From: Salinivirgaceae bacterium
GTDB taxonomy: Bacteria > Bacteroidota > Bacteroidia > Bacteroidales > SZUA-534
NCBI GenBank assembly: GCA_024405635.1
Contig: JAKSOL010000026.1
Coordinates: 1-37,692 of the forward strand
Reading direction: 5' to 3'
DNA: 37,692 bases
Shown in pieces: positions 2,466 to 27,238 of the stretch. The stretch's first letter is position 1, and each line of letters starts with the position of its first letter. The notes under the pieces are model-generated. The model was not told the origin of the DNA. It did no database searches and was given only the letters and a program-made list of their open reading frames with translations. The position numbers were made by a program, and so were the translations under genes.

Positions 2466-2482
2466 GTTTTTATGCTACAAAA

Positions 2483-3043: not shown

Positions 3044-3327
3044 TGCCCGTAGGTTGGAGCCGCTAAAATAATCAGAACGCCGATTATTTGAACATAAAAA
3101 AAAGAGTTGTATCAAACTGATGCTTGCTTTATGCGGAGGCATATTTATGTATAGCAAAATGCAAATGGTTTATTTGTCTTTGTTACTATGGTTTGTTATA
3201 AAAATCAAAATGCCTCGTTTTGGATACATTTCAGAGTGGAATAGTGATATGTACAACTTATTCACACACATATATTAGTTAACTAAAAAAACTACATTTG
3301 CCCAGAAACCTTAAATGTTTTAGGATT

Positions 3328-6102: not shown

Positions 6103-6141
6103 TTATTATAGTTCAGACATAGTCTGAATTAAAGAATAAAG

Positions 6142-6174
6142 GCACCCAAGGTTTATACTTTGGGTGCTTTTTTT
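6142..6174 (+). terminator. Intrinsic terminator after xylanase 1
   Basis: GCACCCAA...TTGGGTGC hairpin followed by T7. Confidence 0.8.
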
Positions 6175-6284
6175 ATCAATCTGTTGACTTGAAAACTTTA
6201 AGTCTTGATATTTGTTATCAACACAACTACAATCAAACACGAAAAAACAATACCTTCGGTCCCAATAACCTTTAAAATTTTGAT

Positions 6285-9020
6285 ATGAAGAATCACTACA
6301 GAAGAACATTGGCAGTGGCACTTTGCGCAACGTTGAGTGTCGGTGCTTCAGCTCAATTGTCGAGCAATCCAGACAAATTTCTGGGAAACATTACCACCTA
6401 CGGTCAGGTGGATTATGAAGGGGTGGTTTACTCAACCTTGTGGAATGAGATTACACCAGAAAACGAAACAAAATGGGAGTCGATTGAAGGAAACGGTCGC
6501 GGCATCTTTAACTGGGATGGAGCCGACCGTAGTTACAATTATGCTAAAGAGCATGGCTTCCCATTTAAGTTTCACTGCTTAATTTGGGGCGCACAATATC
6601 CTAGCTGGATGAATTCACTTTCGACCAACGACCAACACGATGCGCTTGTAGAGTGGTATGATGCTGTAAAAGAACATTATAACACCATCGATTTGATTGA
6701 TGTGGTTAACGAAGCTATTAAAGGTCACCAACCTGCACCTTTCCGTAATGCGCTAGGTGGAGAGGGAAAAACTGGTTACGATTGGATTATTAGAGCATTT
6801 GAAATGGCTCACGAGCGTTGGCCAGAAGCTATTTTGATTTATAACGACTACAACTCGGTTTTGCATCAACGTAAAGAATTTATCGATTTGGTTAAAACAT
6901 TGCGTGATGCTGGTGCTCCAATTGACGCTTACGGTTTGCAAAGTCACGACCTTAACGCTACAAAGGACAACATGACTTTCGATTTGTTTAAAAAATACTT
7001 CGATGAGTTAAACGATTCGTTGTTGATGCCAGCTTACAGTACCGAGTATGATATTGACGAGGCTAGCGACGATGTTCAGTTGCGCCAATACAAAGACCAA
7101 ATTCCATACATGTGGGAGAAAGACTACTTTGCAGGTCTTACTCTTTGGGGTTACGTTTTTGGTCGCACTTGGGTCGATAACTCTGGTATTGTTCGCAATC
7201 CAAAGAACGGAACATTTACCGAACGCCCAGCATATACTTGGTTAAAAGAATATATGGCGAGTGATGCTGCAAAAAATGCAAAAAGCCCATTCCCAAATTT
7301 TAAGAAAGAAGCTTCAGTTTACATTGCGCCTTATGCTTTGCGCATGCCAGTTAACGAGCCAGTTCCTGTTACCGTAAAGGCTGAACTTCATAATGGTAAA
7401 ACTATTGCCAGTGTTGCTCTTTATGCAAATGGCGAATTGGTATCAACCTTAACATCAGCACCTTATGTGTTTAGTTATAATCCAACCAAAGAGGGTTATG
7501 TTCGCCTTAATGCAGTTGTTACCGATACCGATAACAAAGAATACAAACGAGTTGGTGGTGTAACAATTCATTCGGCACGCTCGCCTTATGCTGGCGCAAT
7601 TGCAATGCCTGGCACTCTTGAGGCCGAAAATTTTGATAATGGTCAAGATGGCATAACATTCCACGACAACGACTCCAAAAACAGCGGTGGTAACGAATAC
7701 CGCGAAAATGTTGGAGGCGTTGACTTTATGGCCGAAAATAATGGTGTTGTTATTAGCAACACTTTTGGCGAAGAATGGCTTGAGTACACAGTTGATGTAA
7801 AAGAGGCTGGTTTGTACGAATATGAAGTGGTAGCAGCAGCAACCTCAAAAAATGCCAACTTCAACATCCTTTTGTCCGACGGCTCGTTGCTCGAAACACT
7901 TGCATCAGTTAAAGTTCCTTACGACGAGGATAAACAATACAAATCGGTAGTTGGTCGTTTTAGTCAAGAACTTACTGCTGGAAAGCACGTTATTCGCATT
8001 GCATTTGTAGCATCGGGAACAAAACTCGATAAAATCAACCTTAAACACGTAAATATCAATAAAGGCATTACTGCTGAAATTAAAATGGATGCCGAGAAAA
8101 TTGTGTTGGGCGAGTCGTTGAACATTACCGTTCAAACAAGCGTATCGGCAACAACCGACCAAATTGCCAAAGTTGATGTTTATGTAGCTGGTGCATTGGC
8201 AAAATCAATGACTACAGCACCTTACACATTTGCTTACAAAGCAGAATCGACTGGTACATTTGATGTTCGTGCTATTGCATTTGATGCAAACGGATTTGAG
8301 GCTCCAGAGGCAACTGCAACATTTGTAGTAAAACCTCCACGTTCGCCATACGCTACAGTAACCATTCCTGGTGTTATTGAAGCTGAAAACTTTGATGCTG
8401 GTGGCGAAGGCGACTCGTTCCACGATAGCGATGAAAAAGATGAAGGCGCAGTTGGTTATCGTGCCGATAATGAAGGAGTTGATATTGTAACTGGAAACAA
8501 AGGTTATGCAATTGGATACACAGCAGCAGGCGAGTGGCTTGAATATACAGTAAATGTTGCTAAAACAGCAAACTACGAGTTTCGAGCCGTTGTGTCATCG
8601 GGTAGCGATGGCTCTGCATTTACAATTGCACTAATGAACAACGGAAAAGCAACAAGCCTTGCAAGAGTTAACGTGCCAAATGGTGGTAGCTGGGATACTT
8701 ACAAAGCAGTAAACGGCAAACTTAGCAAGCAACTTGAGGCTGGCGAGCAAGTAATTCGTTTCACAATTAACGGTGCATATTGCAATATCGACAAGGTTTA
8801 CATTTTTGAGGAAGGAACAACTCCTGACGCTATTGCCGATGTTGTGAGCGACCAAATTAGCACCTACAATGTTTACACCACAGCAGGTATTTTGGTCGGC
8901 CAAGTAACAGCAAATGCTGAAACAATTAAAGAAGCTTTGCGTGTTTTGACTGGCGACAATGGCTTGTATGTTGTTAAAAATGTTGACAACGGTGCAGCAA
9001 AACTAATGAGCACATACTAG
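6285..9020 (+). CDS. Secreted GH10 endo-1,4-beta-xylanase with Ig-like and two CBM6-like modules, T9SS-type C-terminus (paralog 2)
   Basis: Same architecture and motifs as 3328-6102 (SAQLSSNPDKFLGNITT, DVVNEA, STEYDI, GAAKLMST). Confidence 0.88.
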   Translation: MKNHYRRTLAVALCATLSVGASAQLSSNPDKFLGNITTYGQVDYEGVVYSTLWNEITPENETKWESIEGNGRGIFNWDGADRSYNYAKEHGFPFKFHCLIWGAQYPSWMNSLSTNDQHDALVEWYDAVKEHYNTIDLIDVVNEAIKGHQPAPFRNALGGEGKTGYDWIIRAFEMAHERWPEAILIYNDYNSVLHQRKEFIDLVKTLRDAGAPIDAYGLQSHDLNATKDNMTFDLFKKYFDELNDSLLMPAYSTEYDIDEASDDVQLRQYKDQIPYMWEKDYFAGLTLWGYVFGRTWVDNSGIVRNPKNGTFTERPAYTWLKEYMASDAAKNAKSPFPNFKKEASVYIAPYALRMPVNEPVPVTVKAELHNGKTIASVALYANGELVSTLTSAPYVFSYNPTKEGYVRLNAVVTDTDNKEYKRVGGVTIHSARSPYAGAIAMPGTLEAENFDNGQDGITFHDNDSKNSGGNEYRENVGGVDFMAENNGVVISNTFGEEWLEYTVDVKEAGLYEYEVVAAATSKNANFNILLSDGSLLETLASVKVPYDEDKQYKSVVGRFSQELTAGKHVIRIAFVASGTKLDKINLKHVNINKGITAEIKMDAEKIVLGESLNITVQTSVSATTDQIAKVDVYVAGALAKSMTTAPYTFAYKAESTGTFDVRAIAFDANGFEAPEATATFVVKPPRSPYATVTIPGVIEAENFDAGGEGDSFHDSDEKDEGAVGYRADNEGVDIVTGNKGYAIGYTAAGEWLEYTVNVAKTANYEFRAVVSSGSDGSAFTIALMNNGKATSLARVNVPNGGSWDTYKAVNGKLSKQLEAGEQVIRFTINGAYCNIDKVYIFEEGTTPDAIADVVSDQISTYNVYTTAGILVGQVTANAETIKEALRVLTGDNGLYVVKNVDNGAAKLMSTY

Positions 9021-9053
9021 TGCAATAACAGCCGTATAATACGGCGGGTATAT

Positions 9054-9097
9054 AAAAACTCCCAAAGTGGCGAACGTCCGCTTTGGGAGTTTTTTTT
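9054..9097 (+). terminator. Intrinsic terminator after xylanase 2
   Basis: AAAAACTCCCAAAGTGG-loop-CCGCTTTGGGAGTTTTT hairpin with T-tract. Confidence 0.85.
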
Positions 9098-9225
9098 GTT
9101 TTCAATGTGAGTTGACGATTAGGTAAAACTCAATTGTAAGATTGAGAGAAAAAAATGAACTTTTTTTTGAAAAACGTAGTGCATTTTTTTTTTTGGTTAA
9201 AAAGCAATTTGTGACGTTTGATTCA

Positions 9226-9338
9226 TGTAACATATAAAATGCAGATATACAAGCAAATGGCGCTTTTTGTGTAACATAAATAAAGATATCTGTAACGTAC
9301 ACGGAAACACGTGAAACAAGGAAAAAGAAACGTGTAAC
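9226..9338 (+). promoter_or_regulatory. Phased TGTAAC direct repeats upstream of susC (candidate HTCS/AraC-type operator)
   Basis: TGTAAC at 9270, 9291, 9333 and TGAAAC at 9312 (exact 21-bp period); a further TGTAAC at 9226. Confidence 0.6.
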
Positions 9339-9464
9339 AGGAAGGAAGAGTTGTTCAGAAATGTTGTTTGATTTTTACAATCGGAAAAAGCATAGGCCTA
9401 TTCCGAATGTGAATTGCAAGTGATTATGTCACCTATTATTAAACAAAAACCAAAAAAACAAAGT

Positions 9465-12400
9465 ATGAAGACTAAACTGTCGTTTTTGCTTGTACTTATG
9501 TTATTAGTACAAGTGTCGTGGGCACAAGCCCAAAACGTGAAGGGTAAAGTCGTTGATGCAAGCAACGAACCCATAGTTGGAGCTACTGTAGTGGTAAAAG
9601 GAACTACAAATGGTACAGCTACCGACATTGATGGAAACTTTACCGTAAATGCCGCAAGTGATGCAACCTTGGTTGTGTCGTTTATCGGTTATTTGACAGA
9701 AGAGGTAGCTGTTAACGGCCGCTCTTCTATTAATGTAACCTTGGCCGAAGATTTGAAACAATTGGGCGAGGTTGTGGTAATTGGTTATGGCGCACAACGT
9801 AAAGAGGCCGTTACAGGTTCAGTTGAGCACGTAAGTGATGATATTATTAAAGAAGTTGCTTCAGCCGACGTTTCTCGTTCATTGCAAGGTCGTATTGCTG
9901 GTGTTGTAATGAACCAAAGTTCATCAAAACCAGGTTCGGCAATGAACATTACCATACGTGGTACAAAATCATTCTCAGCCGACAATGCTCCATTGGTTGT
10001 TGTTGATGGTATTCCAACATCGTTGAGCCTTAGCGACATTAACCCAGGCGATATTAAAAGTATCGATATTTTGAAAGACGCTTCGTCGTGTGCTATTTAT
10101 GGTTCGCGCGGTGTAGGTGGTGTTATTGTTGTAACAACCAATAGCGGTAACTTTAACCAAAAAGCCATTGTAGCATATAATGGATATGTTGGTGCAAATA
10201 CAGTATTTGCTAAATATCCAATGATGAATGGTAAACAATTGGTTGAATTGCGCCAAATTGCTGGTAAGTATCAAAATGGTCCAGATGAAGATGACGAAAA
10301 CGATACCGATTGGCAAGATTTGTTGTATGCTCCAGGTTTGGTTACAAACCACGACTTGTCAGTACGCGGTGGTAGCGAAAAATCAAACTATACACTTAGC
10401 ACAGGTTACTATCGTGAAGAAGCTGTTCTTCCTTGCCAAAACTACTCTCGTTTGAATGCTCGTTTGGCTATTGACCAAAAAGTAGGCGATTGGTTGCGTT
10501 TTAGCTTGCAAAGCTTTAATGGTTATTCAGTAAAAGAAGGTATGGGACTTGGCCTTTATGGCGTTTTGTCAGCATCGCCTCTTGTTGATCCTAAAAACGA
10601 AGACGGAACAACTAAACGCGATTTCCAAACTGCAGCCGACCAAAGCTATACAATTACCCGCGACGTGGTTGAGGATTTGGTTGCAAATGACCAATGGTTA
10701 GACGAAAGCAAAAGTTTTCACTCAAATAATACAGGCGTTGTTGAGGTAAATATTCCAAAAATCGAAGGCTTGAAATACCGCATGAATATAGGTCTTGACT
10801 TCGCTGTAACTAATACCGGAGGCTATACTGCTCAAGGTGTATGGAATTATTCAAGAACTACTGCTGCTTCAGCTAGCACAAACTACTCAATTAACAACAA
10901 ATGGTCTGTTGAGAACTTGTTGACCTACGACCGTACATTTGGTAATCATAAAATTGGTGCATTGGCATTGTATTCAGCTGAAAAAACACACTACCACAAC
11001 ACCTATTCATCAACAACAGCTACAGCATCTGATCAATTCTTGTACTACAATCTAGGTTCAAGTAGTGAGCCAAAGACCGTAAGTGGTGGAATGAATGAAA
11101 CTGGTTTGTTGTCGTATATGGGACGTATTCTTTATTCGTATGACGACCGTTATATGTTGAACATTTCATATCGTGCTGATGGTTCTTCTCGTTTGGCCGA
11201 GGGCAACAAATGGCATGCTTATCCAGCTGTTTCTCTTGGTTGGAACATTCACAAAGAAGCATTTATGGCAAGCACCGAAAACTGGCTTAATAATTTGAAA
11301 TTCCGTTTGGGTTGGGGACAAACCTCAAACCAAGCTGTTAGCCCATATACTACATACGGATCATTGGCTACTGTGAAATACAACTTTGGCGATGCTTTGG
11401 TTCAAGGCTATTACCCAACAGAAACAAGCAACCCAAATCTTGGCTGGGAGTTTACAAAAGGTATAAACGTAGGTTTGGAATTCGGTTTGTTTAAAGATCG
11501 TTTGACTGGAAACTTTGAGTACTACAACTTGGATACCGAAGATAACCTTCAAGCAGTATCGTTGCCAACCACTTCTGGTTTTTCATCATACACAGCTAAC
11601 GTAGGTAAAATCAATAACAAAGGTTTTGAGTTGTCGTTGAATGGTGTTTTAGTTGAAGATTTCAATGGCTTGAAATGGGAAGCAGGTTTCAACATCTACT
11701 CTAACAAGAACGAAATTATTGCTCTAGCTTCTGGTAAAAAACAAGACGAAGGTAACTACTGGTTCGTTGGACACTCAATGAACGTGTTGTACGATTATGA
11801 ATATGTTGGCTTGTGGAGCCAAAAAGATGTTGATAGCGGTGTGCTTGCAATTCTTGATAACGCTGCTGAACCTGGAGATATTCGTGTAAAATACACAGGC
11901 GAATATGACGATAACGGAATGCCAGTTCGCAAAATTGGTTCAGCCGACCGTGTTATTACCGATATGGATCCAAAAGCTCAAGGTGGTTTCAATACTAAAT
12001 TGACTTACAAAGGATTTGATTTATCAGTAGTAGGTATTTACCAAGTAGGAGGTAAACTAGTTAGTACACTTCACTCATCGTTTGGTTACTTGAATATGTT
12101 GAACGGTCGTCGTGGTAATGTTGATGTTGACTACTGGACACCTGAAAACACAAATGCTCGCTATCCAAATCCTGCAGGTTTGAAATCTGGCGACAATCCA
12201 AAATATGGTTCTACTCTTGGTATATTTGATGCAGGCTATTGCAAAGTGCGCGACATTACTTTGGGCTATAGCTTCGATTCAATGGATGGCGTTAAAAAAC
12301 TTGGCATCAACAAACTTCGTTTGTATGCTACCGTTCAAAACCCATTCGTAATCAGCTCAAAATATCACAAAGAAACAGGTCTTGACCCAGAAACTAACTC

Positions 12401-12518
12401 ACGTGGTAACGAAAACGTGGCTACAGCTGCTAGCGGTTACTCAAACAGAACTTACACAATCGCTACAAACACACCACAAACTCGTAGATTCTTGGTAGGA
12501 CTTAACTTGACATTCTAA
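9465..12518 (+). CDS. susC: SusC/RagA TonB-dependent outer-membrane transporter
   Basis: Signal peptide from ATG 9465; N-terminal extension VKGKVVDASNEPIVGATV, plug ILKDASSCAIYGSRG, barrel motif YRADGSSR, terminal GLNLTF. Confidence 0.93.
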   Translation: MKTKLSFLLVLMLLVQVSWAQAQNVKGKVVDASNEPIVGATVVVKGTTNGTATDIDGNFTVNAASDATLVVSFIGYLTEEVAVNGRSSINVTLAEDLKQLGEVVVIGYGAQRKEAVTGSVEHVSDDIIKEVASADVSRSLQGRIAGVVMNQSSSKPGSAMNITIRGTKSFSADNAPLVVVDGIPTSLSLSDINPGDIKSIDILKDASSCAIYGSRGVGGVIVVTTNSGNFNQKAIVAYNGYVGANTVFAKYPMMNGKQLVELRQIAGKYQNGPDEDDENDTDWQDLLYAPGLVTNHDLSVRGGSEKSNYTLSTGYYREEAVLPCQNYSRLNARLAIDQKVGDWLRFSLQSFNGYSVKEGMGLGLYGVLSASPLVDPKNEDGTTKRDFQTAADQSYTITRDVVEDLVANDQWLDESKSFHSNNTGVVEVNIPKIEGLKYRMNIGLDFAVTNTGGYTAQGVWNYSRTTAASASTNYSINNKWSVENLLTYDRTFGNHKIGALALYSAEKTHYHNTYSSTTATASDQFLYYNLGSSSEPKTVSGGMNETGLLSYMGRILYSYDDRYMLNISYRADGSSRLAEGNKWHAYPAVSLGWNIHKEAFMASTENWLNNLKFRLGWGQTSNQAVSPYTTYGSLATVKYNFGDALVQGYYPTETSNPNLGWEFTKGINVGLEFGLFKDRLTGNFEYYNLDTEDNLQAVSLPTTSGFSSYTANVGKINNKGFELSLNGVLVEDFNGLKWEAGFNIYSNKNEIIALASGKKQDEGNYWFVGHSMNVLYDYEYVGLWSQKDVDSGVLAILDNAAEPGDIRVKYTGEYDDNGMPVRKIGSADRVITDMDPKAQGGFNTKLTYKGFDLSVVGIYQVGGKLVSTLHSSFGYLNMLNGRRGNVDVDYWTPENTNARYPNPAGLKSGDNPKYGSTLGIFDAGYCKVRDITLGYSFDSMDGVKKLGINKLRLYATVQNPFVISSKYHKETGLDPETNSRGNENVATAASGYSNRTYTIATNTPQTRRFLVGLNLTF

Positions 12519-12532
12519 AAAATTTGAACAAT

Positions 12533-14524
12533 ATGAAAAAGTTTAATATAAAAGCATTAGTTGCAATTGCTGCATTAGCAGGATTATCAACAAGTTGCTC
12601 CGATATTTTGGACGAAACTCCACGTTCAAAGTTCACATTGGCTTATTTTCAAACAGCACAAGGTGTTGAGGGCGGTTTAACTTCGCTTTATGCAACCTTG
12701 CGCAACCTATACGGTGAGCCATACGTTTACAACGATTGGCAATGCGGTACCGACGAGTACACATTTGGTCAAAGTGCCGACGGTAATATGACCGATATTG
12801 ACTTTACAATTGAGGACGAATCAACCGGTAAATTGTTTGGTAGTACTCTTACAGGTGCAAATACAACAGGTGGTATTCTTTGGGGCCGTTCGTTCCCAGC
12901 TATCAATACCGCAAGTGGTGTAATTGAGTATGCTGAACCAGCTGGCGTGTCTCCAGCTTTGGTTTCTGAGGCTCGTTTCTTCCGTGCTTTCTACTATTTT
13001 AACCTTGTTCAAGAATTTGGTGGTGTGCCATTGGATTTGGGTTCGGGTGTTATGAAATTCAATTCCGATCCAAAACGTACTTCAGTTCGTAACACTGTTC
13101 CTGAGGTTTATACCATTGGTATTTTCCCTGACCTTGTAAAAGCTGTTGACGAGTTGCCAGACGATCCACGTGTAGTTGGTGGTGTTACTAAAACAATGGC
13201 TCGCCTTACTTTGGCAAAAGCATATTTGACCTATGGTTGGTGGTTGGAAAATCCAAACAACATTCCAACTTACCCAGTTTGCGACCGTGTTGACCCTGAT
13301 GGTCACGATGCTGCTTGGTATTTCCAAAAAGCATACGATTTGGCTATTGAGGCTATTGAAAATCCTGGTCCTTTTGGTTTGCAAGAGTCGTTCTATAAAG
13401 TTAATGTTGAGGAAAATAGCCGCAACAACGAGTGGCTTTTGTTTAGCGACCGTACAAAAGACAATGAGGAATACAACGGTACTAACTACAACTATGCTGG
13501 CGATATTAATGCTGCACAAAACTACGCTTGGTGGTTCACCAACTTTAACTACACCGAGGTTAAGTCTGGAAAGAGTCTAGATGGTGGAAATTGGAAAGGT
13601 TCTGTTAGTTCTGTTCAACGTTCGGCTGACCAATACTATGGTCGTCCTTGGACTCGTATTGCTCCTCCTCACGAGGTATTCAACAATATTTTTGCTGAAA
13701 AAGTAAAAGACTCTCGTTACGACGGAACATTCAATACAGTTTACCGCGCAAACTGGAAACTAAACGATGCAGATGCTAAAGTTGATTCTGTATTTAATGC
13801 TAACAAAATGGTTGTTCGCAACGGTGAGCCTATATTTAAGTTCTTGTCAGAAAATAATGATGCAATTGACTATACCAATAACAAAATTAACAACATTGGT
13901 ATGGGCGAAATCCCAGGAGAGGCTGCTTGGGTTGTTGATATTCAAGGTATTAACCGTCGCGCTTATCCAGCAAACTGGAAATTAGGTGCTTCAAGCCCTG
14001 ACAAAACCGATAGCAACCTTGGTACTCCAAACGCAGCATTGGCTCGTCCATACTGCATCGCCAAATTCAGCGAACTATATTTGATTGCTGCTGAGGCTGC
14101 TGTTAAAGGTGCAACTGGTTCACAATCGGCTCGCGACCTTATCAACGTGCTTCGTGCTCGTGCTGGTAAATGGACTTATAGCAATGCCGACCGTGCTGAA
14201 AAAATTGCTGACTATAGTGCTGATATGGTTGCTGCAACCCCTGCAACTATCGATATTAACTATGTTCTTGACGAACGTTCGCGTGAATTGTTTGGTGAGG
14301 GTTACCGTCGTTTCGACCTTATTCGTACTCAAACTTGGATTGAACGTGCTGGCGAATACACAATTTGCGGTGTTCTATCGTGCCAATACGATGACCATAC
14401 TCCAAGAGTTTGGAAACGCGATATAAAAGATTATATGTACTTGCGCCCAATTCCTCAAAGCCAATTCGATAATATGGATTGCACTGAAGAAGAAAAAGCT
14501 GCATATCAAAACCCAGGTTATTAA
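12533..14524 (+). CDS. susD: SusD/RagB surface glycan-binding lipoprotein
   Basis: Lipobox LSTSC, EARFFRAFYYFNLV, ELYLIAAEA, DERSRELFGEGYRRFDLIR, terminal QNPGY; follows susC. Confidence 0.93.
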   Translation: MKKFNIKALVAIAALAGLSTSCSDILDETPRSKFTLAYFQTAQGVEGGLTSLYATLRNLYGEPYVYNDWQCGTDEYTFGQSADGNMTDIDFTIEDESTGKLFGSTLTGANTTGGILWGRSFPAINTASGVIEYAEPAGVSPALVSEARFFRAFYYFNLVQEFGGVPLDLGSGVMKFNSDPKRTSVRNTVPEVYTIGIFPDLVKAVDELPDDPRVVGGVTKTMARLTLAKAYLTYGWWLENPNNIPTYPVCDRVDPDGHDAAWYFQKAYDLAIEAIENPGPFGLQESFYKVNVEENSRNNEWLLFSDRTKDNEEYNGTNYNYAGDINAAQNYAWWFTNFNYTEVKSGKSLDGGNWKGSVSSVQRSADQYYGRPWTRIAPPHEVFNNIFAEKVKDSRYDGTFNTVYRANWKLNDADAKVDSVFNANKMVVRNGEPIFKFLSENNDAIDYTNNKINNIGMGEIPGEAAWVVDIQGINRRAYPANWKLGASSPDKTDSNLGTPNAALARPYCIAKFSELYLIAAEAAVKGATGSQSARDLINVLRARAGKWTYSNADRAEKIADYSADMVAATPATIDINYVLDERSRELFGEGYRRFDLIRTQTWIERAGEYTICGVLSCQYDDHTPRVWKRDIKDYMYLRPIPQSQFDNMDCTEEEKAAYQNPGY

Positions 14525-19977: not shown

Positions 19978-22572
19978 ATGAAAAAACTACTCTTGAATTT
20001 GGCTCTTATTGCAACAACTGGAGCTTTGCTAACAGCTTGTAATACAAAAGAACCATACAAAAATCCAAAACTATCGGCCGAGGAACGTGCAGCCGATTTG
20101 GTAACCCGACTTACACTTGAAGAAAAAGCCGCCTTGATGCAAGACGAATCGGCAGCAGTTGAACGTCTTGGCATTCAGCGTTATGGTTGGTGGAACGAGG
20201 CTCTGCATGGCGTTGCTCGTGCCGGAAAAGCAACCGTTTTTCCTCAAGCAATAGGCATGGCGGCCACATGGGACGACAACGCTGTTTATCGTGCTTTTAC
20301 CGCAGTTAGCGACGAGGCTCGTGCAAAAAATACCGACGACCGTAAAAAAGGTGAATTCAACCGCTATCAAGGTCTTACATTTTGGACTCCAAACGTTAAC
20401 ATTTTTCGCGATCCGCGTTGGGGACGTGGCCAAGAAACATACGGAGAAGACCCATATCTAACTAGCCGCATGGGTGTTAGTGTGGTTCGCGGATTACAAG
20501 GTCCTACCAACACCAAGTACCACAAGGCTCACGCTTGTGCAAAACACTACGCTGTGCATAGCGGACCTGAAAGCAGCCGACACAAATTCAATGTTGATAG
20601 CCTTCCTCAACGTTTGTTGTGGGAAATTTACTTGCCAGCATTTAAAGCATTGGTTTGCGAGGCAAATGTGCGCGAGGTTATGTGCGCATACAATGCTGTT
20701 GATGGCGAACCATGCTGCGGTAACAAACAACTACTAACCAGCATTTTGCGCGACCTCTGGAATTTTGATGGCATTGTAGTTTCCGATTGTTGGGCAATTA
20801 ACGACTTTTATGGCGGACCAGGTCGCGGACACAATCGTTATGCCACCCCTACCGAATCGGGTGCTGCAGCTGTCATTTCTGGAACCGATCTTGAGTGCGG
20901 CTCAACTTTCAAAACACTTACCGAGGCGGTTGAAAAAGGATTTATTACCGAAGACAGAATTAACACTAGCGTTAAACGCTTGCTTACTGCGCGTTTTCAA
21001 CTTGGTTTAATGGACGACGACAAACTTGTTGATTGGACTCGTATTTCGCTCGATACCGTTAATTGCCAAACTCACCAATACTTGGCTTTAGAGATGGCTC
21101 AAAAAAGTATGGTGCTTTTGCAAAATCGTAACAACATTTTGCCTCTCTCAAAAAATGCAAAAGTGGCAGTGGTTGGCCCTAATGCCGACAATCCAACTAT
21201 GCAATGGGGCAATTATAACGGTTTTCCTGCTTACACAATTTCAATTCTCGAGGGCATCCAGTCAAAAAGTGCCGATGTTACTTATGTAAAAGGTTGCGAA
21301 CTGCTTGTAAACGAGAAGTTTGTTAGCTTATACTACAATTGCAAAAGCGAAAAAGGAGTTGGATTTAGCGCAAAATATTGGGACAACACCAACATGCAAG
21401 GCGAGCCTGTTGCAATTGAAAACTACGAAAATCCTCCATTTCTTAACAACGGAGGCGGCACCGTGTTTGCGCCAAATGTGCCTCTTACCGAATTTTCGGG
21501 CAAATTTGAGAGTACTTTTACCGCAACTGCAACCAACGAGGTTGAAATAAGCATTAGTGCCGACGACGAATACAAACTAACGATTGATGGAACCGAAGTT
21601 GCTGCCGCTAAGAGTAATGCTCACGGCCCAACCTCAAAAACATACAAAATGAAAGCCGTGGCTGGAAAAAGCTACAAAATTGAAATTGACTACATTCAAC
21701 ACCAAGACGAAGCATCGTTGAGCTTTTCAATTGGTTACAAAAAACCAACCACACCTAGCGAATTGGTTGCAAGTGTTAAAAACTGCGATGTGGTTGTGTT
21801 TGTAGGCGGCATTTCACCTCGTCTTGAAGGCGAAGAGATGCGTGTCGATTTTGAAGGATTTATTGGTGGCGACCGCACCAACATTGAGTTGCCTGCTGTT
21901 CAACGTCAAATGATTGCAGCTTTGGCTAAGGCGGGTAAAAAAGTAGTGCTTGTTAACTGTAGTGGCAGCGCAATGGGATTGGTTCCCGAGTCGAAAAACT
22001 GCGAGGCAATTTTGCAAGCATGGTATCCGGGCGAAGCTGGTGGACAAGCTGTTGCCGATGTGCTATTTGGCGACTACAATCCTGCAGGTCGTTTGCCTGT
22101 AACTTTCTACAAATCAGCCAGTCAGTTGCCCGATTTTGAAGATTATGGATTCGATGGTCGTACCTATATGTATATGACACAAGAACCATTGTTCCCATTT
22201 GGTTTTGGCTTGAGCTACACAACATTTGATTATGTTAAAGCCGAATGGCAAAAATCAACCATTAAAAAAGGTGAGTCAGCAAAATTGAGCCTAACCATAA
22301 GCAATACAGGTAAAATTAGTGGCGACGAGGTTGCTCAAGTTTATATTAAACGAAACGACGACACCAACGGCCCAAGTAAAATGTTGCGCTACTTTAAACG
22401 TGTGAACATTGCATCTGGTGCTCAAACAGTGCTTGATATTGAGTTGAATGCCGATGCGTTCCGTTTCTTCAACAGCAAAACAAACGACATGGACATTCTT
22501 CCTGGCGATTATACAGTTTACTACGGAGGTAACTCTCGCGATTTAAAATCGTTGAGCCTGACCATTGAATAA
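19978..22572 (+). CDS. GH3 beta-xylosidase lipoprotein with PA14 insertion and FnIII-like C-terminus (Xyl3A-like)
   Basis: Lipobox LLTAC; WWNEALHGV, FRDPRWGRGQETYGEDP, KHYAVHSGPE, nucleophile VVSDCWA; PA14-like insert; AWYPGEAGG. Confidence 0.9.
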   Translation: MKKLLLNLALIATTGALLTACNTKEPYKNPKLSAEERAADLVTRLTLEEKAALMQDESAAVERLGIQRYGWWNEALHGVARAGKATVFPQAIGMAATWDDNAVYRAFTAVSDEARAKNTDDRKKGEFNRYQGLTFWTPNVNIFRDPRWGRGQETYGEDPYLTSRMGVSVVRGLQGPTNTKYHKAHACAKHYAVHSGPESSRHKFNVDSLPQRLLWEIYLPAFKALVCEANVREVMCAYNAVDGEPCCGNKQLLTSILRDLWNFDGIVVSDCWAINDFYGGPGRGHNRYATPTESGAAAVISGTDLECGSTFKTLTEAVEKGFITEDRINTSVKRLLTARFQLGLMDDDKLVDWTRISLDTVNCQTHQYLALEMAQKSMVLLQNRNNILPLSKNAKVAVVGPNADNPTMQWGNYNGFPAYTISILEGIQSKSADVTYVKGCELLVNEKFVSLYYNCKSEKGVGFSAKYWDNTNMQGEPVAIENYENPPFLNNGGGTVFAPNVPLTEFSGKFESTFTATATNEVEISISADDEYKLTIDGTEVAAAKSNAHGPTSKTYKMKAVAGKSYKIEIDYIQHQDEASLSFSIGYKKPTTPSELVASVKNCDVVVFVGGISPRLEGEEMRVDFEGFIGGDRTNIELPAVQRQMIAALAKAGKKVVLVNCSGSAMGLVPESKNCEAILQAWYPGEAGGQAVADVLFGDYNPAGRLPVTFYKSASQLPDFEDYGFDGRTYMYMTQEPLFPFGFGLSYTTFDYVKAEWQKSTIKKGESAKLSLTISNTGKISGDEVAQVYIKRNDDTNGPSKMLRYFKRVNIASGAQTVLDIELNADAFRFFNSKTNDMDILPGDYTVYYGGNSRDLKSLSLTIE

Positions 22573-22611: not shown

Positions 22612-23019
22612 TTAGATTTGTTCGATGTCGCCAAGTCCGTCTGTTGCACCTTCCAGTTCAACGGTTTCGATAGATGGCACGTCAATCTGCTCATAATCAC
22701 CGTTACCGTTCATTAGGTAGGTTACACCGTTCTCGTCTTGATACAACTCGCCCATTGATGCGTCGCCAAGTCCAGCCATTGATGGCAAGTACTCTTTTGC
22801 ATAACCTGAAATGATTGAGCCAGCCATACCCAAGAACAAACCTTGTGCTACTGACGATTTGCAAATAATTGCACCAGCCAATGATGCTACACCTGTTGCG
22901 ATGCGACCGATGTTAGAATTAAGTTTTGACACTCTTGACTGCAATGCACTTACAGCCACCGAACCCAAAACCATACCGCCAGCCATTAGGGCAGGCTTTT
23001 TGAAATCTTTTACTTCCAT
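22612..23019 (-). CDS. Hypothetical small membrane protein with acidic tail and repeated Gly motifs (putative virion component)
   Basis: 135 aa; Gly/Ala-rich hydrophobic segments in residues 10-72, acidic C-terminus, motifs MAGG, MAGLGD, MNGNGD, DGLGD; 30 bp downstream of the 456-aa gene. Confidence 0.65.
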   Translation of the reverse strand: MEVKDFKKPALMAGGMVLGSVAVSALQSRVSKLNSNIGRIATGVASLAGAIICKSSVAQGLFLGMAGSIISGYAKEYLPSMAGLGDASMGELYQDENGVTYLMNGNGDYEQIDVPSIETVELEGATDGLGDIEQI

Positions 23020-23049: not shown

Positions 23050-24420
23050 TTAACGTCGTTTTGTTATTATATATACTAAACCAGCAATGCCTAAACCTCC
23101 AAGTAACCAAGTAGATATAGATGCTTGCTGTTTAATTTCAGTTGTTTGTAATTGTAGATTTTGCAATGCGCTTTCCATTCTCGCCTGTGTTTGTGCTGCC
23201 GAATCGCTTTCGGTTGCAGCTTTGTCGAGTTGGTCTTTGACGCTATTTATTGCGGTATCTACCTTGTTTTGGATAGACTGATTAACGTTGCTCAAACTTG
23301 TTACAATAGCGCGATTGCTGCTTTTAACGGTTGCTACTGTTTCAGCATTTGCAGCGGCTGTGGCGTTTGTTACAGTTTTAAGAGTTGGCGCAATATCCTG
23401 AATAGTTAAAGGCTCTTGCCCCACATTCTCCATTTCGGCATCTACTTTTTTATCTATATCCTTGCCTACTTTTGCAGCCTTTTTTGCGGCTTTATTTGCC
23501 TTTCTATTTTTAACTGCGCTAATAAGTTTGCCGCCAACATTTTTAGCCAGCGAAACAGCCTCTGTTATCCAGCCAAGTTCGCCGTTTACAATTTGCAATG
23601 GTGTCGCTACCCAAACATCGTTAGTTGCACTTGCACCGTTAAGACTATCAACGTAACGTTTGTTTTTGTCGCCGCGAATTGCCCAACTTCCATCAGTACA
23701 GCGCATTGCCCAAGTACCAAGCGCATGATTGTAGAATACAGGCGAAAATGCACGATCAGAACGACGACTAAAAACTGGTTCGTCGGTTTCGCCAAGTCCG
23801 TTAAGTCCGCTATTGTTTGCTCCGCCTAAAATTGTCTTGTCGTATGCTTGCAAGTATTTCTTTTCCTCGTTGTAATTATCCATAACGTCGTCAATTACAA
23901 TATACTCGCTGCGTACATTCAGGTTTGCGTTGTTGATTTTAGGCACAATAACGTAAATATGTTGATAAGCACCACGTTGTTTATATGAACACATACGTAA
24001 CGAGTGCGGTATGTTCAAGTTGCAAAGAATAGTGCTAATGAAAATAGAATAGCAATCGCAATCTACACCACTTTTGCGATCTGCCCAAGTGCGTACAGGC
24101 TGACGCAATTCCTCAATCATTGGATTGTCTTTATGATATTGGATATGGTCAAATACAAATTGCCAAATTGCTTTACAAGTTGCATCAAGTGTTGCGCGTT
24201 TTAGCAATACTGCTATTTGCGCGGTTTGATGTTTAGTGCGGCTTATGATGTCAGGCATTAAACGGTTAATAGTATCAAATTGATCAACTCCCATACGCAA
24301 CACTGGATTGGTGCGAATTGGTTGACCGAAATAACGGTTATATTCAGCGCCTGATTTTATTTTTCGGCTGCCGTTGCTTGCATATCCTAATGCTCCGTTA
24401 AGTTCTTGCGTTAGTAACAT
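23050..24420 (-). CDS. Transglutaminase-like cysteine protease domain protein with helical stalk and C-terminal membrane anchor
   Basis: IWQFVFDHIQY helix, GVDCDCYS (Cys121), QHIYV (His154), IVIDD (Asp177) in transglutaminase-like order; Ala/Gln-rich helical region; C-terminal WLLGGLGIAGLVYIITKRR. Confidence 0.7.
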   Translation of the reverse strand: MLLTQELNGALGYASNGSRKIKSGAEYNRYFGQPIRTNPVLRMGVDQFDTINRLMPDIISRTKHQTAQIAVLLKRATLDATCKAIWQFVFDHIQYHKDNPMIEELRQPVRTWADRKSGVDCDCYSIFISTILCNLNIPHSLRMCSYKQRGAYQHIYVIVPKINNANLNVRSEYIVIDDVMDNYNEEKKYLQAYDKTILGGANNSGLNGLGETDEPVFSRRSDRAFSPVFYNHALGTWAMRCTDGSWAIRGDKNKRYVDSLNGASATNDVWVATPLQIVNGELGWITEAVSLAKNVGGKLISAVKNRKANKAAKKAAKVGKDIDKKVDAEMENVGQEPLTIQDIAPTLKTVTNATAAANAETVATVKSSNRAIVTSLSNVNQSIQNKVDTAINSVKDQLDKAATESDSAAQTQARMESALQNLQLQTTEIKQQASISTWLLGGLGIAGLVYIITKRR

Positions 24421-24710: not shown

Positions 24711-24893
24711 ATGGATAACAACAAAATAACCAAATCAACCCAGTGTATCACTCGCGAAGAACTTGCAGCACGATACGGCGTTTGTCGTCGAACATTGTAT
24801 TCGTGGCTCAATAAAGCAGGAATCCAATTGAAACAAAAAAGCCGCATAACTCCAAAAGAATTAGCGGCTATTGTTGCGGTGTTAGGGGAATAG
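24711..24893 (+). CDS. Small helix-turn-helix DNA-binding protein (excisionase/MerR-like)
   Basis: 60 aa, ITREELAARYGVCRRTLYSWL HTH pattern; divergent from the 456-aa gene. Confidence 0.7.
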   Translation: MDNNKITKSTQCITREELAARYGVCRRTLYSWLNKAGIQLKQKSRITPKELAAIVAVLGE

Positions 24894-24894
24894 A
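24840..24894 (+). repeat. 55-bp direct repeat, copy 1 (3' end of the HTH gene)
   Basis: AGCCGCATAACTCCAAAAGAATTAGCGGCTATTGTTGCGGTGTTAGGGGAATAGA; 54/55 identical to 25507-25561. Confidence 0.95.
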
Positions 24895-24931: not shown

Positions 24932-25156
24932 ATGGCAAGAATTACAATCAATTACAAAAACAATGCTGCAACTCGTTCTATTATTGAATCTCTTGTAAAT
25001 TATGGAGTGTTTACAATAGTGGAAACCGAAGAAGAAGAACGATTTAGAATAGAAATGAAAAAGGCTTTTAAGTCAGCAGAAGTGGCTATTAACAAAATTA
25101 AAAACCACAATGGAAAAGGTGTAAAGAAGTTGGAGGATATTTTGAATGAAATATGA
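24932..25156 (+). CDS. Putative antitoxin
   Basis: 74 aa, overlaps the downstream RelE-type toxin gene by 11 nt; C-terminal KKLEDILNEI resembles the tails of such antitoxins. Confidence 0.65.
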   Translation: MARITINYKNNAATRSIIESLVNYGVFTIVETEEEERFRIEMKKAFKSAEVAINKIKNHNGKGVKKLEDILNEI

Positions 25157-25502
25157 GTTTTATGTTACTAACGAATTTAACAAGCAACTAAAAAGATTAT
25201 CAAAAAAATACAAATCTATTACACTTGATTTGCTCAATTTTAGAAATGAATTTGAACAAAAATACCCTCTTGTAGGCGTTGATTTAGGCGGTGGATATAG
25301 AAAAATAAGATTAGAAATAAAATCTAAAAACAAAGGCAAAAGTGGCGGTGCAAGAATTATAACATACGATTTATGTTTGAATATCGAAGAAAATACAAAA
25401 AAAGTACTTTTAGTTACAATTTTTGATAAAAGCGACTTTGAGAATATAAACGATAAACTATATAAAAAAGTTGCTATGGAATACTTATTTAGTATGCTAT
25501 AA
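25146..25502 (+). CDS. RelE/ParE-superfamily toxin (mRNA interferase type)
   Basis: EFNKQLKRLSKKY...DLGGGYRKIRL...KGKSGGARIITY...LVTIFDKS pattern. Confidence 0.85.
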   Translation: MKYEFYVTNEFNKQLKRLSKKYKSITLDLLNFRNEFEQKYPLVGVDLGGGYRKIRLEIKSKNKGKSGGARIITYDLCLNIEENTKKVLLVTIFDKSDFENINDKLYKKVAMEYLFSML

Positions 25503-25506
25503 AAAT

Positions 25507-25561
25507 AGCCGCATAACTCCAAAAGAATTAGCGGCTATTGTTGCGGTGTTGGGGGAATAGA
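25507..25561 (+). repeat. 55-bp direct repeat, copy 2
   Basis: Matches 24840-24894 except one A/G change (TTA/TTG, synonymous in the HTH frame). Confidence 0.95.
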
Positions 25562-25659: not shown

Positions 25660-25956
25660 TCATACTCTTATAGTATTAAGTTTGAATTTTTTTACTTTGT
25701 TTTCTTTGGTTAATCTAACTTGCTTGCCACATACCAATTGTTTTAGTATTGCGTACAACTGGCTCTTTTTACCGTCGTCGATAAAAAGAACTCTCATAAA
25801 ATCATCTAACGTTAAGTAGCACCTGTATTTGTTGAATACTATCAACACTTTTTCGCGTAAAGTCATATCTTTACCGTTTGATTGTTTTATTTGAAGTTGC
25901 TTGTCGTACACAATTTTTTGCAATCGGTGTATTTCCTTAATTGGTAGCGTTATCAT
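25660..25956 (-). CDS. Hypothetical basic protein, possible winged helix
   Basis: 98 aa; ATGA overlap with the upstream ORF; TLREKVLIVF...LTLDDF...QLYAILKQLV..KQVRL resembles wHTH topology. Confidence 0.5.
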   Translation of the reverse strand: MITLPIKEIHRLQKIVYDKQLQIKQSNGKDMTLREKVLIVFNKYRCYLTLDDFMRVLFIDDGKKSQLYAILKQLVCGKQVRLTKENKVKKFKLNTIRV

Positions 25957-26192
25957 ACAAGATTTACTTTTTTGATTATGGTATTTGTCTTGTTGTCTAT
26001 AACCAAATAGTTCTTTATATCAGTCCTACCTAATACCAGTTTTCGCTCCATTGCTGCTATAACTTTGTCAACTGGCTTTTTATCGTTAAACGGTAGGTTG
26101 TAAAATTCGTTTCGGTTGTCGGTGTAACGATGGTAAAGCACCATTTTTATAATTGCGTTTTGCTTGCGCTCGCTATAATCAATCTTCATCAT
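25953..26192 (-). CDS. Hypothetical phage-like protein
   Basis: 79 aa, overlaps both neighbouring ORFs in a coupled minus-strand run. Confidence 0.5.
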   Translation of the reverse strand: MMKIDYSERKQNAIIKMVLYHRYTDNRNEFYNLPFNDKKPVDKVIAAMERKLVLGRTDIKNYLVIDNKTNTIIKKVNLV

Positions 26193-26370
26193 ATCGGTCG
26201 AGTATATCGGTTAAATGTATAAGCCAGCTTAAATAGCATAGTAACAGCAGGTTTAAGTGGGTTAAATATGGAAGTCTGTAACGTAAGTGTATGTAATTTA
26301 CTCGCTCGATGTTTACAACAACACCAAGCAAGTAAAATACAATCATAGATATAACAAATGCAGCTTTCAT
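26179..26370 (-). CDS. Hypothetical small membrane protein
   Basis: 63 aa with two hydrophobic segments; starts 1 nt after the upstream stop. Confidence 0.45.
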   Translation of the reverse strand: MKAAFVISMIVFYLLGVVVNIERVNYIHLRYRLPYLTHLNLLLLCYLSWLIHLTDILDRYDED

Positions 26371-26371
26371 T

Positions 26372-26782
26372 TTAGTACAATTTGTTTATTGTTTCGTCGG
26401 CAATTGGTTCTCTGTACTGGCTTGTTACGAATACAGTTGTTACATAGTTCTTACTGATTTTTCCGTTCTGAATTGCCGAAAATTCACTGTCGTAAATACG
26501 ACGGTCTAAATATATTTTGTTGCTATATCTGAAAATGTTAGTGTATCCAGTTATAACGGCTGGTATTTCCTCGCACATAAACAAGTCGTTTTCGTCTATT
26601 GAATACTTGTCAAACGCACCATCGTGATAGTATGTAAATACTTCCTCGCCAGTTGTAAACTCAACCGCAGCAACAATGCTGTTGTTTTTGCCCAATAATT
26701 CGCCTAAAAAGCGTGCTGGTCTTCCGTCGCGAGTGCAAATTGGTTCGCCATTTTGGGCGGCTTCTAAATCAAATTTTTTCAT
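26372..26782 (-). CDS. Hypothetical phage protein
   Basis: N-terminal MKKFDLEAAQNGEPICTRDGRPAR...DLFM pattern recalled from phage hypothetical proteins. Confidence 0.65.
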   Translation of the reverse strand: MKKFDLEAAQNGEPICTRDGRPARFLGELLGKNNSIVAAVEFTTGEEVFTYYHDGAFDKYSIDENDLFMCEEIPAVITGYTNIFRYSNKIYLDRRIYDSEFSAIQNGKISKNYVTTVFVTSQYREPIADETINKLY

Positions 26783-26893
26783 TTTTGTAGTGTTTTATTT
26801 ATTGCTTGCGCCATAGGTGCGCCACGTTATTGCGGCGTACTTGTGGCGTTTTTATTTATTCAATATCAGTTTCCTGTTTTATTGTTATGCAAT

Positions 26894-27238
26894 TCAACTA
26901 TCATCGTGCTTCAGCGAGTTCAGACGCTTCTTTAGGTCGTTTTTTATCTCATCTTGTATCTGCTTTCTTCCCCATTCTATTGCATCTGAAAATGTAGGCT
27001 GACGATTAAATCCTTGAGAAAAGAACCAATCACTAAACGCTACTTCTCTGTCGTATTCCTCTTTTGTAAGATTTTTGGGGTGATTTAGTTGATTTTGCTC
27101 ATACTGCTCATCTTTCCACTCAGCCATTTTCAAAATCGCAGATTGAATTTCTTGCCTCTGTGATTCATACTTATGAAAACACAGACCATCGTCAAATAAA
27201 TTCCATGCAATTTCTTTTGCTTTCTCTTCGTTTGTCAT
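26894..27238 (-). CDS. Hypothetical phage protein
   Basis: 114 aa; MTNEEKAKEIA...AILKMAEWKDEQ pattern recalled from Bacteroidales phage accessory proteins. Confidence 0.6.
   Translation of the reverse strand: MTNEEKAKEIAWNLFDDGLCFHKYESQRQEIQSAILKMAEWKDEQYEQNQLNHPKNLTKEEYDREVAFSDWFFSQGFNRQPTFSDAIEWGRKQIQDEIKNDLKKRLNSLKHDDS

Follow-up and report, generated by a model that had tools for sequence, protein, structure and literature searches.

A membrane-anchored enzyme of predicted transglutaminase-like fold, bracketed by glycine motifs, in a Bacteroidota provirus remnant: a candidate self-processing virion protease

We know of no maturation protease in the prokaryotic tailless viruses that combine a jelly-roll capsid with an inner membrane. 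For the eukaryotic members, one review (PMC6260650) traces the protease to a eukaryotic transposon, and SSIP-1 is presented as a tailless icosahedral phage with an inner membrane in two articles (PMC6356626, PMC6260650). Among enzymes of transglutaminase-like fold, LapG (BTLCP family, MEROPS C93) is a site-specific processing protease that cuts between small residues at a di-alanine, according to PMC10990149. PMC10318531 describes PeiW and PeiP (C71, from methanogen proviruses) as pseudomurein endoisopeptidases with a lytic role, which cut an isopeptide bond of the cell wall and not proteins, and McjB (C96, Transglut_core3) as a transglutaminase-like cysteine protease, the leader peptidase of a lasso peptide, which makes one specific maturation cut. 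The subject of this report is a gene at positions 23050..24420 of the minus strand in a 37,692-nucleotide (nt) stretch of DNA from a Salinivirgaceae bacterium (contig JAKSOL010000026.1, positions 1 to 37,692, assembly GCA_024405635.1), referred to here in its full length as the window. The open reading frame (ORF) begins with ATG and encodes 456 amino acids (aa), as established from the ORF listing, motif positions, alignment and model. The protein is laid out as a transglutaminase-fold enzyme, linkers, a small beta domain, a cationic helix, a polar helical region and a C-terminal transmembrane (TM) anchor, with short glycine motifs near the boundaries of these parts. In our view self-processing at the glycine motifs is the best reading of the protein; we infer both the cleavage and its agent from sequence, and would put the probability of this reading at roughly 0.45.

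The catalytic domain (residues 13-200, 23821..24384; all parts of the enzyme gene are on the minus strand) was delimited by the invariant D120-C121-D122, H154 and D177 and by a fold search. In 89 aligned sequences the invariant residues are Y95, D98, E103, R106, P108, R115, D120, C121, D122, L132, H154, Y156, D177 and E186; the conservation of the triad together with so many surrounding charged residues argues for an active enzyme. An AlphaFold2 (AF2) model of residues 1-300 has a predicted local distance difference test (pLDDT) score of 89 or higher at residues 20-200 and is of low confidence at residues 1-9 (below 50), 202-224 and 259-281. In this model Cys121 (codon 24058..24060), the putative nucleophile, is at the N-terminus of helix 121-134, His154 (23959..23961) lies on strand 152-160 and Asp177 (23890..23892) on the next strand, modelled at 173-176, so that the predicted order and geometry of Cys, His and Asp are those of the canonical transglutaminase/papain-like arrangement. 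SSIP-1 gp34, a distant homolog considered below, retains only the first Cys of the corresponding D-C-D-C element, which makes Cys121 rather than Cys123 the likely nucleophile.

A search of 48,161 Protein Data Bank (PDB) representatives with VIA-align gave as its top match the putative protease 3kd4 (Z 11.9, r.m.s.d. 2.9, 138 residues aligned), followed by PeiP (Z 11.0), LapG (Z 10.2, r.m.s.d. 3.6, 136 aligned), PeiW (Z 9.3), 3isr (Z 9.3) and TglA (Z 9.2), with PNGase and eukaryotic transglutaminases near Z 8. Foldseek alone was weak for this domain, with a best E of 4.4e-3. Scans of the protein against Pfam, PHROGs and NCBIfam returned no significant match (PHROGs none at all) and no transglutaminase model at E <= 0.01, and a profile search of PDB sequences returned nothing significant, helical proteins dominating the list. 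Two matches of coiled-coil type to the polar helical region were rejected as noise below threshold: XhlA, with E 0.0089 and a score of 16.6 bits where 34.7 are required, and TIGR03752, with 20 bits where 241 are required. Precomputed annotation places PF04473 in 16 of 120 listed homologs, and most neighbours of the domain in the ESM Atlas are transglutaminase-like proteins from viruses; part of the members of these neighbours carry PF01841, PF04473 or PF06035. We thus assign the domain to the transglutaminase-like (papain-type) superfamily on its modelled fold and triad, and not on a Pfam model; its catalytic activity is putative.

LapG shares with the enzyme its fold and the Cys-His-Asp triad. 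LapG is calcium-dependent; the window enzyme has Asp residues on both sides of the catalytic Cys (D-C-D). The enzyme differs from LapG in giving no match to the PF06035 (BTLCP/LapG) model at E <= 0.01, in having no signal peptide evident on reading, in its viral rather than periplasmic regulatory context and in a putative site based on Gly rather than on Ala-Ala. PeiW and PeiP are, like the enzyme, virus-encoded proteins of transglutaminase-like fold, but they have a different domain layout and no sequence-level match to them appeared in the PDB profile search. McjB likewise has no sequence match to the enzyme; it belongs to a pathway for ribosomally synthesized and post-translationally modified peptides and not to a virus, and has a single small peptide as its substrate. 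The adenovirus protease, adenain, belongs to clan CE and has a Ulp1-like fold with the catalytic order His-Glu-Cys (His...Glu/Asp...Cys), whereas the enzyme has the order Cys121-His154-Asp177 on a transglutaminase fold and is membrane-tethered. The two are unrelated and the resemblance is functional at most: adenain is a virion cysteine protease of a jelly-roll-capsid virus, motifs occur in several structural proteins in both cases, and the adenain consensus (M/I/L)XGX|G fits LNGL|G of the enzyme. The motif right before the cationic amphipathic helix also recalls adenovirus protein VI, from which a membrane-lytic helix is released.

The six motifs of the window protein are LNGALG (residues 7-12), ILGG (197-200), LNGLG (206-210), LNG (260-262), VNGELG (278-283) and LLGGLG (439-444). 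The first-pass annotation of this DNA had proposed a self-processing polyprotein in which a transglutaminase-like protease with the triad Cys121/His154/Asp177 carries such motifs at its module boundaries. A check of the sequence finds the ORF, the motifs and the triad residues all where it had placed them; the fold that it named agrees with the AF2 model, the VIA-align matches and a triad invariant in 89 of 89 sequences, and the motif segments do look linker-like and fall in low-confidence parts of the model. We keep the term 'polyprotein' as a hypothesis. The N-terminal motif (24385..24402) stands just before the ordered domain and corresponds to a family consensus [P][IV][KRQ]xLNG[LV]G; the post-domain motif (23791..23805) is in a disordered linker; VNGELG (23572..23589) immediately precedes the cationic helix.

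Conservation was scored in alignment A1, which holds 29 full-length homologs, and here the expectation that the motifs would be conserved was borne out for three of the six. In the N-terminal motif L is kept in 28, N in 25 and the final G in 28 of the 29; at residues 206-208 the counts are L 26, N 24 and G (Gly208) 29; for the GLG of residues 281-283 they are 20, 19 and 27. LNG 260-262 is conserved in part (L 16/29, G 19/29), and ILGG and LLGGLG are not conserved. The V-N-G of residues 278-280 is an insertion found solely in the window protein, so that only GLG 281-283 of VNGELG is a conserved feature, and LLGGLG is part of the membrane anchor. The pattern [LMIV]xGx(0-1)LG matches the protein five times, overlaps counted, against 0.055 expected in shuffled protein (none of 20,000 shuffles reached five), but it was defined after the protein had been seen and two of the five matches are in the C-terminal TM helix, so such chance figures overstate the case and conservation is the better test. 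The adenovirus consensus is matched four times against 0.51 expected (fraction of shuffles reaching four, 0.00095). Among 1937 long non-overlapping ORFs of the same genome, in which [LMIV]xGx(0-1)LG occurs at 0.216 per 1000 aa, the enzyme ORF ranks first by both count and density.

Three known types of signal were considered for these motifs and rejected. A GlyGly-CTERM/rhombosortase signal for LLGGLG...KRR does not fit, the GG being unconserved in homologs; spontaneous Asn-Gly autocleavage does not fit a motif whose N commonly gives way to D, S or T and is missing from the fusion junctions described below; and a lipobox or prepilin site would call for a Cys or a Phe that, by reading, is absent from the expected place.

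The DC[DE]x core is kept by 236 of 245 fetched homologs, in which motifs concentrate at the N-terminus and 70-140 residues past the Cys; in 181 of the 236 a motif lies at +70 to +130 from it. On both sides of the catalytic domain the motif takes the extended form P-[IV]-[KRQ]-x-L-N-G, as in one protein that has NPIKYLNG at its N-terminus and QPIKYLNG after the domain. Both copies are present in 55 proteins; when the four residues that lead up to LNG are compared within each protein, 2.42 of 4 positions agree, compared with 1.52 +/- 0.10 for permuted pairs (maximum 1.91 over 2000 permutations); these counts come from related sequences rather than independent events and are inflated by kinship, although several distinct states agree. 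The matched flank states are KY/KY (12), RM/RM (6), RS/RS (4), RY/RY (3), QY/QY (3) and RG/RG (2), and at least eight distinct ones occur (KY, RM, RS, RY, QY, RG, RN and QQ). This extended motif on both sides of the domain, with copies that covary, is the strongest new evidence.

Further support comes from gene fusions. In four natural fusions of the enzyme to c6, a small membrane protein encoded upstream of it in relatives (P0120, P0197, P0239 and L002), a GLG-type motif lies exactly at the junction, and three of the four stop exactly at the C-terminal edge of the domain. In L002 the ORF that follows the fused c6-enzyme begins MINGMPIQFLNG. We note that the fusion region of this locus (6801-9273) shows a fission directly after the domain, with two ORFs 7 nt apart in different frames, and a frameshift may lie behind it. 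A motif always precedes the cationic amphipathic helix. Some proviruses have a separate gene (L022, 11392-12024; L016, 11471-12133; L007, 11937-13289) whose product combines the small beta domain with a GLG motif and an amphipathic helix very rich in Lys, and which is a paralog of the C-terminal modules of the enzyme.

The enzyme family is large. A word-indexed search gave 147 relatives, and an exhaustive HMMER search gave 2439 representative clusters at E <= 1e-3 and 1421 at E <= 1e-10; members are seen almost only in Bacteroidota, and most are unnamed or labelled hypothetical in their sources. A genome scan yielded 356 encoding stretches, of which 80 were kept for locus comparison, all from records labelled Bacteroidota save one metagenome-assembled genome labelled Bifidobacterium (L048, titled uncultured Bifidobacterium sp.), whose 8.4 kb contig is probably mis-binned. 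Four IMG/VR contigs also carry the gene. Clustering of all ORFs from 84 loci and the window (85 sources) defined a conserved, co-directional module in the relatives, with the enzyme gene first or early. The module typically starts with c13 and c6, which encode small membrane proteins; next come the enzyme gene and then c5 or c22, for a membrane protein that is rich in Gly and has an acidic tail. After these stand c1, c3, c4 and c9 (a coiled coil), followed by c2 and c8 (peptidoglycan-binding), an endolysin of glycoside hydrolase family 108 (GH108) and a phrog_3000 lysin-like protein. Two cultured, non-pathogenic species, Saccharicrinis aurantiacus (L022) and Ohtaekwangia koreensis (L060), have the module in full.

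Family c1, present in 75 of the 85 sources, was modelled as an eight-stranded sandwich (pLDDT 78.7). Its fold matches are SPV1 (Z 9.1), PBCV-1 (8.8), EhV-201 (8.0), faustovirus (7.3), HCIV-1 (7.0), HHIV-2 (6.9), P23-77 VP17 (6.7), FLiP (6.1) and PRD1 (6.0), and against BFVD it matched capsid proteins of nucleocytoplasmic large DNA viruses (E about 2e-5); a comparison of c1 with the phage collection gave no match. The Z values are middling and the list of matches is coherent, and on this modelling c1 is a jelly-roll capsid protein. A relative of the SSIP-1 packaging ATPase gp40 was present in all three IMG/VR records that were searched whole (E 1e-4 to 1e-8), and in one IMG/VR record a serine recombinase and a large SNF2-type helicase adjoin the module. 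Judged from their gene content, the intact relatives are tailless proviruses with a jelly-roll capsid, and the enzyme belongs to their structural and lysis module. A literature search, which did not extend to the original SSIP-1 description, found no account of this provirus group or of a transglutaminase-fold virion protease. We also note genes for an adenosine phosphosulfate kinase, a sulfotransferase, a phosphoadenosine phosphosulfate (PAPS) reductase and a CysN-like GTPase beside the module in the IMG/VR record G001 (L095-L098; 24463-28358 and 41018-43152); SSIP-1 gp25 is a PAPS reductase, and these sulfur-assimilation genes may reflect an auxiliary metabolic theme common to both or be no more than flanking host DNA.

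The motifs recur in neighbouring proteins of the module. Per 1000 aa, the pattern [LIMV]xG[LIVMF]G is found 3.5 times in the enzyme family, 3.4 times in c5 and 10.3 times in c22; the background figure, from 472 ORFs no shorter than 200 aa, is 0.41. The enrichment for which the first-pass annotation had proposed a test, in homologs and neighbours, was thus found. A relaxed pattern, with a background of 2-3% per 30-45-aa window, stands at fixed places: residues 81-115 of c9 in 25 of 34 members and the last 30 aa of c22 in 9 of 13. It also occurs beyond residue 90 of c5 in 31 of 44 and beyond residue 200 of c8 in 14 of 38, and is nearly absent from c4, c11, c13, c14, c16, c19 and c29. Long forms of c1 have an N-terminal extension with LLGLDG that short forms lack. 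The density of the motif inside and outside the module is 1.50 versus 0.43 per 1000 aa in G001 and 1.17 versus 0 in G002.

The closest described counterpart of the enzyme is SSIP-1 gp34, which was the only match in 50,697 phage records (tblastn E 2e-4; pairwise E 3e-11; family hidden Markov model (HMM) 1.1e-13). The transglutaminase-like cores of the two proteins are homologous (DCD... HVYV), with only 29% identity over 80 residues, and in both the domain is followed by an SLNG element and, at the C-terminus, by a membrane anchor. With its 304 aa gp34 is the shorter protein; it has no small beta domain, no cationic helix and no long polar region. Its record carries the note 'structural protein' and no function, and its presence in the virion is known from that note alone. 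SSIP-1 also resembles the relatives' records in encoding a packaging ATPase in a tailless membrane-containing virus, and the module's GH108 HMM matches its endolysin gp31 (4.6e-21). On these sequence comparisons the enzyme family is the counterpart, by distant homology, of gp34, a virion structural protein of the membrane-containing icosahedral SSIP-1. The first-pass annotation had imagined a bacterial maturation system; for a cellular system of that kind we substitute a viral module, that of a membrane-containing provirus like SSIP-1, in view of gp34, the gp40 relative and the c1 jelly roll.

The window gene is itself a remnant of a tailless membrane-containing provirus, from which only the enzyme gene, ORF135 and a divergent helix-turn-helix (HTH) gene survive between a family 3 glycoside hydrolase (GH3) gene and recR. 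ORF135 (22612..23019, minus strand) encodes a Gly-rich membrane protein with a motif-bearing acidic tail and matches the gene 3' of the enzyme gene in three proviruses (L005, L006 and L013); the DGLGD near its C-terminus (residues 127-131, 22627..22641) includes a nearly invariant G128 (16 homologs), and among the 1937 genome ORFs it ranks sixth by density of [LMIV]xGx(0-1)LG. The HTH gene (24711..24893, plus strand), for a 60-aa regulator, matches small divergent genes upstream of the enzyme gene in six related loci. The genome (2.66 Mb, 99.78% complete) has one copy of the enzyme. When 21 module HMMs were run against six-frame ORFs of this genome, only the enzyme (3.9e-102) and c22, which is ORF135 (1.3e-4), were matched on the window contig; the other matches, c6 on C10 (3e-6), c21 on C31 (1e-31) and c23 on C23 (0.002), do not lie beside any module gene. 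The c1 capsid protein was found in this genome neither by a single-protein query nor by a 75-row profile, and the capsid-module families c1, c3 and c4 gave no match there; the capsid and packaging genes of a gp34-like viral genome are seen in the relatives and not here. Only three of 41 genomes (the genome of the window and 40 relatives) gave any match, which fits a mobile element.

Taken together, the placement of the motifs at module boundaries, their covariation, the fusion junctions and the recurrence in other proteins are most simply explained if one binding site recognises them all, a role for which the invariant Cys-His-Asp site close by is the obvious candidate; the enzyme would then be a self-excising maturation protease. 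The catalytic domain would cut at hydrophobic-x-Gly-hydrophobic-Gly/Asp sites, with the family consensus P-[IV]-[KRQ]-x-L-N-G-[LVF]-G. Such sites lie on either side of the domain, and cutting there would part it from the small beta domain as well as from the cationic amphipathic helix with the membrane anchor. Other virion proteins would be cleaved at comparable sites, namely the downstream membrane protein in its tails, the capsid protein in its N-terminal extension, c8 and c9, and the enzyme would serve as a virion maturation protease that works like the adenovirus protease on a different fold. By analogy, the motif before the cationic amphipathic helix suggests the release of a membrane-active segment. 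A more far-reaching proposal, which we regard as tentative and rather doubtful in its entirety, is that in very widespread SSIP-1-like, membrane-containing jelly-roll proviruses of Bacteroidota the membrane-tethered enzyme is the maturation protease, that it excises itself at two co-evolving P-[IV]-[KR]-x-L-N-G sites and trims capsid and membrane proteins at hydrophobic-x-G-hydrophobic-G sites, freeing cationic amphipathic helices that act on host membranes, and that bacterial viruses have thereby arrived, by convergence, at a system comparable to the adenovirus protease with protein VI.

Several observations weigh against self-processing and virion maturation. In the window protein ILGG is unconserved save for its hydrophobic first residue and LLGGLG is unconserved as a motif; the motifs are degenerate relative to the family consensus, with no [IV][KR] before LNG, and the second PIRxLNG copy has been deleted. 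The remnant has no capsid to mature. The kinship behind the covariation counts belongs here as well. Of the 21 module HMMs, 19 match nothing in the 9.5-33.7 kb region (24 kb) of the 43.8 kb SSIP-1 genome, only the enzyme and GH108 being matched, so that kinship with this phage is partial; and among 15 SSIP-1 coding sequences the strict motif is absent from the structural proteins gp37, gp40 and gp41 and occurs only inside the core helix of gp34 and in gp35. The top fold matches include the provirus-encoded isopeptidases PeiP and PeiW, to which PMC10318531 gives a lytic role. These last matches would also fit a different function, a virion-associated cell-wall peptidase that cuts peptidoglycan stems or cross-links at genome delivery or lysis and is anchored to the viral inner membrane, with the motifs as flexible hinges. 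That gp34 is a virion protein according to its record would suit such an enzyme, as would a gene that shares its module with other lysins. PRD1 P7 has an N-terminal lytic domain and a membrane anchor, a layout that the enzyme resembles. The module, however, already has GH108, a peptidoglycan-binding protein and the phrog_3000 lysin-like protein, and hinges alone would leave unexplained both the covariation of the two domain-flanking motifs and the same motif at fixed places in c9, c8, c22 and c1. We regard a cell-wall peptidase as the main rival reading, possible though on balance unlikely.

It is also conceivable that the motifs are short elements for docking or assembly, for instance strands or turns which attach to the capsid shell or to some shared partner and tie the membrane proteins to the capsid, while the enzyme has another role (cross-linking or deamidation) or has lost its activity. 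The motif of the c22 tail, which is embedded in hairpin-like repeats (LYEDEDGxxY...LNG) and could be a structural or docking element, is a further point against cleavage; up to seven motif repeats occur in c22 acidic tails, with one conserved near the C-terminus, and two covarying copies would be expected equally if both bind one site. Lost catalysis is hard to square with a triad and many charged residues that are invariant over 89 sequences, and docking elements with motifs that lie in low-confidence segments of the model; we think this explanation improbable. A complex prediction of enzyme residues 1-215 with the ORF135 tail (residues 72-135) scored 0.00 and returned no answer, which speaks neither for nor against binding. 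Finally, the motifs might mean nothing in particular and reflect chance or the composition of linkers rich in Gly and of a membrane helix of Gly-zipper type. The post hoc pattern, the location of LLGGLG in a TM helix, the unconserved ILGG and the frequency of G[LIVMF]G in Gly-rich TM helices of c5 and c22 would all be consistent with this, but the shuffled proteins and the first rank among the genome ORFs, and above all positional conservation, covariation and the placement at fusion junctions, largely refute it, and we give it hardly any credence.

If the enzyme does process virion proteins by a glycine code, proteolytic maturation of capsids would have been invented independently in this lineage, and a family of 2439 representative clusters would gain a function. 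A large group of Bacteroidota proviruses, not described before and akin to the orphan phage SSIP-1, would then be defined as well. The window instance is a remnant, yet the pattern at the family level is striking. For the window itself the practical result is more modest, a provirus remnant of two genes adjoining a xylan-utilisation locus.

The remaining parts of the enzyme lie C-terminal to the post-domain motif. The small beta domain (residues 225-262, 23635..23748) contains an internal G[TS]WA[MI]R repeat (repeat D4) and ends in LNG 260-262, as judged from the alignment and the model. It is followed by the Lys-rich amphipathic helical segment (residues 284-330, 23431..23571), recognised from the sequence and its homologs and modelled as a helix at 283-294, by the polar helical, coiled-coil-like region (residues 331-432, 23125..23430), seen in the alignment and matched only below threshold, and by the hydrophobic anchor with its basic end KRR (residues 433-456, 23053..23124), which holds LLGGLG. 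A 19-nt stretch that is 89% identical between 22622-22640 and 23783-23801 (repeat D3) encodes (D/N)GLG(D/E) in both the ORF135 tail and the post-domain linker of the enzyme; it could be chance or the trace of a duplication.

The remnant lies in an island of about 4.7 kb between the end of the GH3 gene (22572) and the start of recR (27358), with a G+C content that is mostly low (0.30-0.40). Besides the three viral genes it holds a RelE-type toxin-antitoxin pair and five small ORFs; no tRNA was found in the window and no convincing terminal direct repeats flank the island. A direct repeat of 60 nt, 97% identical (24835-24894 and 25502-25561), flanks the antitoxin and RelE-like genes (24932-25156 and 25146-25502). 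Its first copy is the 3' end of the HTH gene, and the cassette therefore looks like an insertion that duplicated that gene end. The five small ORFs (98, 79, 63, 136 and 114 aa; 25660-27238, minus strand) occupy the part of the island with the lowest G+C content (0.30-0.37); they have no family match and no homolog among 84 related loci, and may come from a different mobile element.

The left two-thirds of the window are ordinary Bacteroidota chromosome, with an extracytoplasmic function (ECF) sigma/anti-sigma pair, two GH10 xylanases, a SusC/SusD pair, carboxyltransferase and decarboxylase subunits, a lipid kinase and GH3. The region 1509-14524 is a xylan-utilisation locus, comprising the ECF sigma/FecR anti-sigma pair, the two GH10 xylanases with carbohydrate-binding modules of families 6/35 (CBM6/35) and the SusC/SusD-like pair; the GH3 gene (19978-22572) comes after it. 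To the right of the island are recR and housekeeping genes. At the right end of the contig (35808-37534) a regulator with WYL/WCX domains is followed by a Cas6 gene, which is probably part of a CRISPR-Cas locus that continues past the end of the window.

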